Below are positions 30,393-30,650 of a DNA stretch of 64,000 nucleotides, piece by piece. The first letter of the stretch is position 1. The number at the start of each line of letters is the position of its first letter. Source of the stretch: Escherichia phage YW01; sequence record PV018828. The stretch is one strand, 5' to 3'. The notes under the pieces were generated by a model that did not search any database, had not been told where the DNA came from, and saw nothing but the letters and a program-made list of their open reading frames with translations. The translations under genes were made by a program, and so were the position numbers.

Positions 30393-30650
30393 CTAAATCA
30401 AATCGTAATACTGGATAATGTCAGAGAGTTTGAACTCTCGAATCTCATCTTTCTCTACATCAATTGCTGTCATAATCCAACAAGGTTTGCCACCGTTATG
30501 AAAACGGGAGCTAGCAACGGAGGTTCGGAGTGGAATAACGGACCGGTCAGCAACCTCGCCTCTCCAATTGCGATAGCGAAAGCGAAGCACTTGTTGCGTA
30601 GATTTTTGATCATCACTCATTTCCTTTTTTGAATTGTTTTCTTGCATCAT
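30393..30650 (-). CDS. Minimal WYL-like domain protein (about 75-85 aa)
   Basis: RFRYRNWRGEVADRSVIPL...GGKPCWIMTAIDVEKDEIREFKLSDI fits the WYL pattern (R-x-V-x-P ... W-Y/I-L ... R-x-F-x-L-x-R/D-I); start ambiguous (ATG at 30650 or 30620). Confidence 0.5.
   Translation of the reverse strand: MMQENNSKKEMSDDQKSTQQVLRFRYRNWRGEVADRSVIPLRTSVASSRFHNGGKPCWIMTAIDVEKDEIREFKLSDIIQYYDLI

Follow-up and report, generated by a model that had tools for sequence, protein, structure and literature searches.

The 64,000-nucleotide stretch of DNA from Escherichia phage YW01 analysed here (sequence record PV018828; hereafter the window) holds, at 30393-30650 on the minus strand, a small gene whose product looks like a WYL domain and little else, and this raises the question of what such a domain might do when nothing is attached to it. 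Many regulators of defence systems and of the response to DNA damage use WYL domains as their sensor modules, and single-stranded DNA (ssDNA) has been established as the natural ligand of these domains only recently. We found that the protein is a bare single-domain WYL variant of the Sm-like SH3 beta-barrel, its 75-85 amino acids (aa) leaving no room for another domain. Tentatively, and with somewhat less than even confidence, we take it to be a small accessory protein that binds nucleic acid or nucleotides and serves phage DNA replication, recombination or nucleotide metabolism.

The gene encodes a single WYL barrel

30393..30650, minus strand: stand-alone WYL-domain protein, phiEco32 gp29 homolog (85 aa; alternative 75 aa from 30620)

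Over 29800-31400 the window shares 96-97.5% identity with many Escherichia podophages of the genus Kuravirus (phiEco32-like). The open reading frame (ORF) ends at 30393 and offers two starts: the ATG at 30650 gives 85 aa with the N-terminus MMQENN (MMQENNSKKEMSDD...), and a second ATG further in, at 30620, yields 75 aa, the length annotated for phiEco32 gp29 (phi32_29). Judged by comparison with relatives, the 85-aa form is probably the one in use, because relatives such as P0005-P0009 have no internal Met yet retain a "MLENNLKKE" N-terminus. Residues are numbered below in the 75-aa form, in which RSVIPL lies at 26-31, CWIMTA at 47-52 and REFKLSDI at 61-68. The first-pass annotation had proposed an ORF of about 75-85 aa that carries these three motifs as a WYL pattern and lacks any attached DNA-binding or effector domain, and each of these points held.

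The Pfam WYL profile (PF13280) matched the 75-aa form with 22.3 bits (E 1.4e-4), above the gathering threshold of 21.8, and the 85-aa form with 21.7 bits, just under it. The same profile matched all of the close relatives (17/17, best E 5e-8) and 84 of 148 distant ones (best E 4e-11), so that the Pfam evidence is marginal for the query sequence and solid for its family. The PADLOC WYL model also matched the protein (E 1.5e-4), two further weak PADLOC matches being taken as spurious, and NCBIfam gave no match. Sequence searches of the PDB with three family profiles (A1, A2 and A3) returned nothing significant (best E 0.065); all four of the non-significant matches of the broad profile A2 were WYL proteins, and their alignments were usable.

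An AlphaFold2 model built from a 148-sequence alignment (mean predicted local distance difference test score, pLDDT, 84) is a single five-stranded barrel with no helix. Its core comprises residues 12-71, and the first ~10 residues form a disordered N-terminal tail of low confidence (mean pLDDT 57). In a Foldseek search of the PDB the best 30 matches were all WYL domains, those of BrxR, PafBC, CapW and DriD (probability 1.0, TM 0.55-0.70), and below them the matches dropped abruptly to Tudor and Cren7 folds; the five-stranded Sm-like SH3 barrel is thus nearest to solved WYL domains. Of the WYL signature, R26-x-V-I-P30, W48-I-M and R61-x-F63 are present; in place of the final "R-I" the protein has D67-I68, and 94% of the family share this Asp. 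No helix-turn-helix (HTH) domain was matched in Pfam, PHROGs or NCBIfam.

A widespread family of bare WYL proteins

The protein matches phrog_3715, of unknown function, with E 6.1e-24 over residues 2-83, as do all of the longer homologs tested (56/56). An HMMER scan of 1.84 billion cluster representatives retrieved 2,724 clusters (50% identity) at E <= 1e-3, and among the best 148 sequences 57 are stand-alone proteins of at most 95 aa, 55 measure 96-150 aa and 36 are longer. By tblastn, homologs occur in 371 phage records. Those with at least 60% identity (98 records) are taken to be kuraviruses, and the remainder, at 30-45% identity, are rV5-like myophages and phages of Cronobacter, Salmonella, Klebsiella, Pectobacterium, Aeromonas, Rhizobium, Vibrio and Caulobacter. 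The first-pass annotation had named two outcomes that would speak against a WYL domain here, namely searches without any WYL or Sm-like hit and the lack of a conserved homolog in related phages; a WYL domain was found by both profile and fold searches, and the phage records supply the homologs. The gene is retained across Kuravirus and also in Salmonella phage 7-11 and D858, for which phi32_29 orthologs are given in Table S2 of PMC8948821. On plasmids the family is rare (4 of 72,556 records), and by a narrow motif scan 39 species-representative bacterial genomes or metagenome-assembled genomes, many of them of Alphaproteobacteria, contain it.

Several viral relatives already carry the automatic label "WYL domain-containing protein", for example Vibrio phage Vp_R1 gp027, Cronobacter phage A24 gp041 and a protein of Aeromonas phage LAh_9. 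These are true homologs (30-44% identity by tblastn, E 1e-6 to 1e-4 by Foldseek against BFVD) with the same size and conserved residues as the query and no difference in kind. What we report is a sound domain annotation of a "hypothetical protein", in a WYL subfamily that has been annotated automatically before, and not a new system. A literature search for stand-alone or phage-encoded WYL proteins, WYL sponges, WYL anti-defence and phiEco32 gp29 turned up no work on function.

In BFVD the viral structure that matches second best, V9SDX8, is an 83-aa protein of Tunisvirus fontaine2, a marseillevirus and thus an amoebal giant virus. It has 38% identity to the phage WYL protein and suggests that the family extends to eukaryotic giant viruses.

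A conserved pocket that differs from that of ssDNA-sensing regulators

The CapW and BrxR regulators (PDB 9c5g, 7tb5/7tb6, 7qfz, 7t8k) are built as winged HTH (wHTH), WYL and WCX domains, whereas the phage protein is one barrel with neither an N-terminal HTH nor a C-terminal WCX or dimerisation domain. Lacking wHTH, linker and WCX, it is therefore not a transcription factor of the CapW/BrxR type. PafBC and DriD (PDB 6sj9, 9fnd, 7tzv, 8tp8) are activators, and the linker and dimer-domain regions that contribute to the DriD pocket are likewise absent from the phage protein.

Within the family Y16 and N18 are invariant, G21, R26, H41, D54 and R61 are conserved at 99%, F63 at 95%, W48, P30 and D67 at 94%, K57 at 92% and A52 at 91%. 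W, Y or H occupies position 19, K or R predominates at positions 17 and 20, and an aromatic residue stands at position 40. A conserved [ST]-[ED]-[WYF]-H loop is specific to the family and is extra relative to CapW and BrxR. The clustering of these residues in space was inferred from strand periodicity and the CapW alignment.

In Rl CapW, ssDNA is contacted by S144, by the arginines R164 and R168 of the RWHVR motif and by R184 (PMC11662680); mutation of the S144 and R184 equivalents abolishes signalling, the response being lost with Ec CapW R200A at the R184 position (PMC11662680). The S144 position aligns with N18. The RWHVR motif aligns with C-W-I-M-T here and with Q-W-L-M/L-x in the family, so that R164 corresponds to C47 (Q in 75% of the family) and R168 to T51, a variable position. 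R184, the canonical Arg of the "L-T/D-R-I/V" motif ("L-T-R-I" in CapW and BrxR), aligns with the near-invariant D67, and the Arg of the PafBC "L-D-R-V" motif also aligns with Asp. These equivalences come from sequence-profile alignments with weak E-values and agree whether the family is aligned to PafBC, to either of two CapW sequences or to BrxR. Of the four CapW residues that touch ssDNA, three are thus replaced, and the alignments suggest a pocket whose position is kept and whose chemistry is altered, by a charge reversal and by the family-specific loop.

The pocket of the regulators is moreover not made by the barrel alone: that of DriD also uses linker Tyr240 and dimer-domain Arg288 (PMC9186387), and that of CapW is completed by residues of the linker and of the WCX/dimer domain (PMC11662680). 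Averaged over the family, the domain carries almost no net charge (mean +0.4, standard deviation 2.3); in the query the core counts +3 from sequence, with a basic N-terminal and an acidic C-terminal half. Taken together, the replaced pocket residues, the absent linker and WCX parts and the neutral charge argue against a simple transfer of CapW-like ssDNA binding to the phage protein. The constellation of aromatic and basic residues is what would be expected of a binder of nucleotides or short single strands.

In function, what comes closest to a WYL barrel that sits in a replication or recombination module, or in an enzyme fusion, is the C-terminal WYL domain of Thermotoga elfii PIF1 (TePif1), an accessory ssDNA-binding module of a DNA-metabolism enzyme (bioRxiv 10.1101/163188). 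That domain is covalently joined to a helicase and has a positively charged channel (R470, R501, R504), whereas the phage family domain is about neutral, and the two are likened by description. Hfq and the Sm/LSm proteins share the superfold, a small, bent, five-stranded barrel (PMC6789036).

Genomic context and fusions in other phages

In rV5 the homolog, gp094, is flanked by an endonuclease VII-like gene and the gene for a DNA polymerase exonuclease subunit, and in rV5-like and several ~140-kb Klebsiella/Raoultella phages the WYL gene is directly downstream of endonuclease VII. It stands between ThyX and DNA ligase in Vibrio phage Vp_R1 and near RNA ligase 2 in Cronobacter phage A24; in Caulobacter phage Sansa the WYL domain is part of a 266-aa protein encoded near the beta clamp. 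For a broader sample we took 67 diverse IMG/VR loci and their flanking ORFs on the same strand (132 proteins). Recurrent neighbours were the DNA polymerase III beta clamp (6), RusA (5), family A DNA polymerase (4), HNH nucleases (at least 4), endonuclease VII (at least 3), integrase (4), DUF5131 (4) and exonucleases. In addition, there was one case each of a methylase, a primase, UDG, a pyrimidine-dimer glycosylase, dCTP and dCMP deaminases, DHFR, GapR and a dGTP diphosphohydrolase. The neighbour annotations listed for these 67 loci included no defence or anti-defence family. The context of the family, suggestive only, is that of phage replication, recombination and nucleotide-metabolism modules. 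A WYL-nuclease pair conserved by descent was considered and rejected, as BLASTP of the kuravirus HNH protein against the rV5 endonuclease VII gave no match.

Among longer members the domain is fused to Lar-like zinc ribbons (3), dATP/dGTP pyrophosphohydrolase (2), MazG or MazG-like domains (2), HD_4 (1) and HTH domains (1-2), and also to DUF551 and DnaJ-type zinc fingers; natural WYL-WYL tandems occur as well. D3_0178 of Aeromonas phage D3 (1669-3183 of locus L004), a 504-aa "putative CytH-like phosphatase", ends in a WYL copy (...LRFVYKNYRGDVATRRV...WLLEAWDLDK...RVFAMKDII).

Five prophage-like IMG/VR contigs (L007, L030, L038, L040 and L072) encode long members with either a C-terminal "W-x-P-I-E/G-T-A-P-K/R-D-G-T" stretch, DUF551-like by eye, or Lar-like zinc ribbons. 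Because at least one long member, that of L007, adjoins a YbcO/HNH-like nuclease gene and RusA neighbours five of the sampled loci, some of the long-member loci may sit in a lambdoid nin-like region.

Neighbouring genes and transcription unit

30613..31014, minus strand: HNH endonuclease, phiEco32 gp30 homolog (phrog_3106, E 5e-40; weak Pfam HNH_5; HNH annotation in phiEco32)
30223..30384, minus strand: DUF7438 gene, 53 aa, phiEco32 gp28 homolog (Pfam DUF7438, E 1.6e-12; phrog_653, unknown function)
30103..30210, minus strand: small ORF, 35 aa, last of the unit (length and relative position match phiEco32 gp27, phi32_27)
30041..30068, no strand assigned: GC-rich hairpin (AAAGCCCCA...TGGGGCTTT) with flanking A-run and T-run (9-bp GC stem by folding)

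In phiEco32, phi32_29 is labelled "hypothetical protein" and has the HNH endonuclease gp30 on one side and the small genes gp28 and gp27 on the other, with the 5'-3' exonuclease gp33, the dNMP kinase gp34 and the phage sigma factor gp36 all upstream. The WYL gene of the window accordingly sits in the cluster that in phiEco32 holds middle genes. The adjacent HNH endonuclease noted by the first-pass annotation was confirmed by its phrog_3106 match. It is encoded directly upstream in a shared operon, and the gene pair is syntenic in 87 kuravirus records. The TGA of the HNH gene overlaps the 75-aa ATG at 30620 (ATGAGTGA), and because of this overlap translational coupling of the two genes is plausible; overlapping start and stop codons are frequent in phage operons whatever the function. 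A simple consensus scan found no promoter or terminator between the two genes.

Downstream, the DUF7438 gene comes next in the shared transcription unit. The hairpin at 30041-30068 is probably a bidirectional intrinsic terminator that serves both the minus-strand middle-gene unit, including the WYL gene, and a convergent plus-strand late gene; the whole 97-nt stretch around it folds with z = -2.3. The simple consensus scan missed the hairpin, possibly because of an internal mismatch in the stem. The gene that converges on the WYL operon (25567-30033, plus strand) encodes a 1488-aa homolog of the hypothetical phiEco32 gp26, rich in Ala, Glu, Gln and Lys and with repetitive low-complexity stretches.

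Three further observations concern the surroundings. When 30613-31180 of the window is compared with 3168-4008 of phiEco32 (locus L001), phiEco32 has a second HNH endonuclease gene, phi32_31, between gp30 and gp32, whereas in the window the gp30 homolog runs directly into the gp32 homolog and the phiEco32 match covers bases 1-367 of the window gp30 only; the phi32_31 region looks like a mobile HNH insertion in phiEco32 that is absent from the window. Several GenBank kuravirus records (among them EC.W2-6, myPSH1131 and IMEP8) have a "terminase small subunit" feature under the match to the HNH gene at 30613-31014, probably a propagated annotation error. Finally, 41 bp at ~30084-30124, comprising the 3' end of the 35-aa ORF and sequence just downstream, are ~95% identical to more than 125 Klebsiella/Raoultella myophage records (~166 kb among the matches listed), and the rest of the region has no match to them. 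A mobile HNH or WYL cassette shared with Klebsiella phages was therefore rejected, the match being unrelated to either gene.

Possible functions of the bare WYL protein

As an accessory factor of phage DNA metabolism, the protein would be a ligand-binding module for a short single-stranded nucleic acid, a DNA end or a nucleotide, which would be held in a predicted pocket of the near-invariant Y16, N18, W/Y19, R/K20, R26, H41, K57, R61 and D67. Once bound to its ligand, the protein would support or fine-tune phage DNA replication, recombination or nucleotide metabolism, perhaps in concert with nucleases encoded nearby; in other phages this module is joined within one protein to nucleotide hydrolases or zinc ribbons. 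The ligand is probably other than the ssDNA of CapW, BrxR and DriD, or is bound differently from it. There is a precedent in the isolated WYL domain of TePif1, which binds ssDNA alone (bioRxiv 10.1101/163188). Several points weigh against such an accessory role. The family domain is neutral, unlike classic ssDNA-binding proteins, and the ssDNA-contact arginines of CapW are not conserved, the canonical R-I Arg being Asp. Most fusion partners are of unknown function, the sampled loci are non-independent, and the neighbour counts are raw. Phage replication modules also hold many unrelated accessory genes, so the context is weak evidence.

It is unlikely, in our view, that the protein is instead a sponge or sensor for a nucleotide-derived small molecule (a cyclic oligonucleotide, a (p)ppGpp or (p)ppApp alarmone, an ADP-ribose derivative or a modified dNTP), a bare and probably oligomeric barrel that would sequester the signal and so blunt host abortive infection or retune nucleotide metabolism. 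The WYL domain was first predicted as a nucleotide-ligand sensor (PMC4012209), and the conserved pocket, its charge reversed relative to ssDNA-binding WYL domains (N18, H41 and D67 for Ser/Arg), would suit a base, sugar or amine moiety. The protein also resembles known phage sponges in its small size and neutral charge, and four kinds of nucleotide phosphohydrolase (MazG-like, dATP/dGTP PPHyd, HD_4 and CYTH) are among the fusions, although such fusions account for only ~6 of 56 long members. Yet all WYL ligands demonstrated by experiment so far are ssDNA or ssRNA (PMC9186387, PMC11662680, 10.1101/163188), no nucleotide sponge was among the matches listed in the PDB fold searches, similarity in sequence or fold to characterised sponges and anti-defence proteins (Tad1, Tad2, Acb2 and similar) was not found, and the 67 IMG/VR loci show no association with anti-defence loci. 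A competing role, as a subunit that regulates or targets the neighbouring HNH nuclease and, in other phages, endonuclease VII or RusA, has a rather slim chance of being correct. In this case the barrel would bind the nuclease through an exposed invariant Trp face, or would bind branched DNA or ssDNA, and thereby direct or restrain cleavage. The overlap of the WYL start with the gp30 stop, the synteny of this pair in kuraviruses, the position directly downstream of endonuclease VII in rV5-like and the ~140-kb Klebsiella/Raoultella phages, and the recurrence of RusA, EndoVII, HNH and YbcO in the IMG/VR sample all fit, as does the 94% conservation of W48 although the linker helix against which it packs in CapW is absent. 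However, these nucleases show no relationship in sequence, a nuclease neighbour is missing for many family members, and the codon overlap is of the common kind mentioned above.

The shared fold with the sensor domains of CapW, BrxR and DriD, the capacity of an isolated WYL domain to bind ssDNA (10.1101/163188) and the use of ssDNA as a cue by several defence-associated WYL repressors (PMC11662680, PMC13622015) could also point to a decoy that competes with host WYL regulators (CapW, BrxR, PafBC-like) for the ssDNA cue of infection and so keeps WYL-repressed defence operons off. Against this stands the replacement of three of the four CapW contact residues, including Arg by Asp where Ec CapW R200A abolishes the response (PMC11662680), as well as the lack of the linker and WCX parts of the pocket. 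In addition, WYL derepression is reported not to be required to stop a primary infection and instead to prime survivors (PMC13622015), so that a virulent phage would gain little from suppressing it. To outcompete abundant ssDNA would also demand very high protein levels, and the gene and its relatives stand in replication, recombination and nucleotide modules and are kept like a core gene, unlike typical variable anti-defence genes. The first-pass annotation had suggested a decoy or sponge for a nucleic-acid or nucleotide signal; nothing in the present analysis supports such a role, and its specific ssDNA-decoy form is somewhat disfavoured and, in our view, very unlikely. The chance that the protein is a ring-forming, RNA-binding chaperone of the Hfq or Sm type is smaller still: it shares their barrel, and neither the N-terminal helix nor a match to the Hfq or LSm sequence families was found.

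Significance for phage biology

Bare WYL proteins form a very large phage family, present in coliphages such as phiEco32 and rV5 as well as in many prophages, with a pocket that is strongly conserved and chemically unlike the ssDNA pocket of CapW, BrxR and DriD. A bolder proposal, rather improbable at present, is that the WYL-only proteins of phrog_3715 are widespread phage ligand traps or sensors in which an Asn/His/Asp pocket replaces Ser/Arg/Arg and which blind a host defence or stress response. Were this true, the ligand would be either a signal of host immunity or stress that derives from nucleotides or a DNA end of a particular kind, and not generic ssDNA, and the MazG, HD and CYTH fusions would be "bind-and-destroy" versions of counter-defence. 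Identification of the ligand would either give phage DNA metabolism another small and common accessory protein or, with lower likelihood, uncover a new principle of counter-defence.
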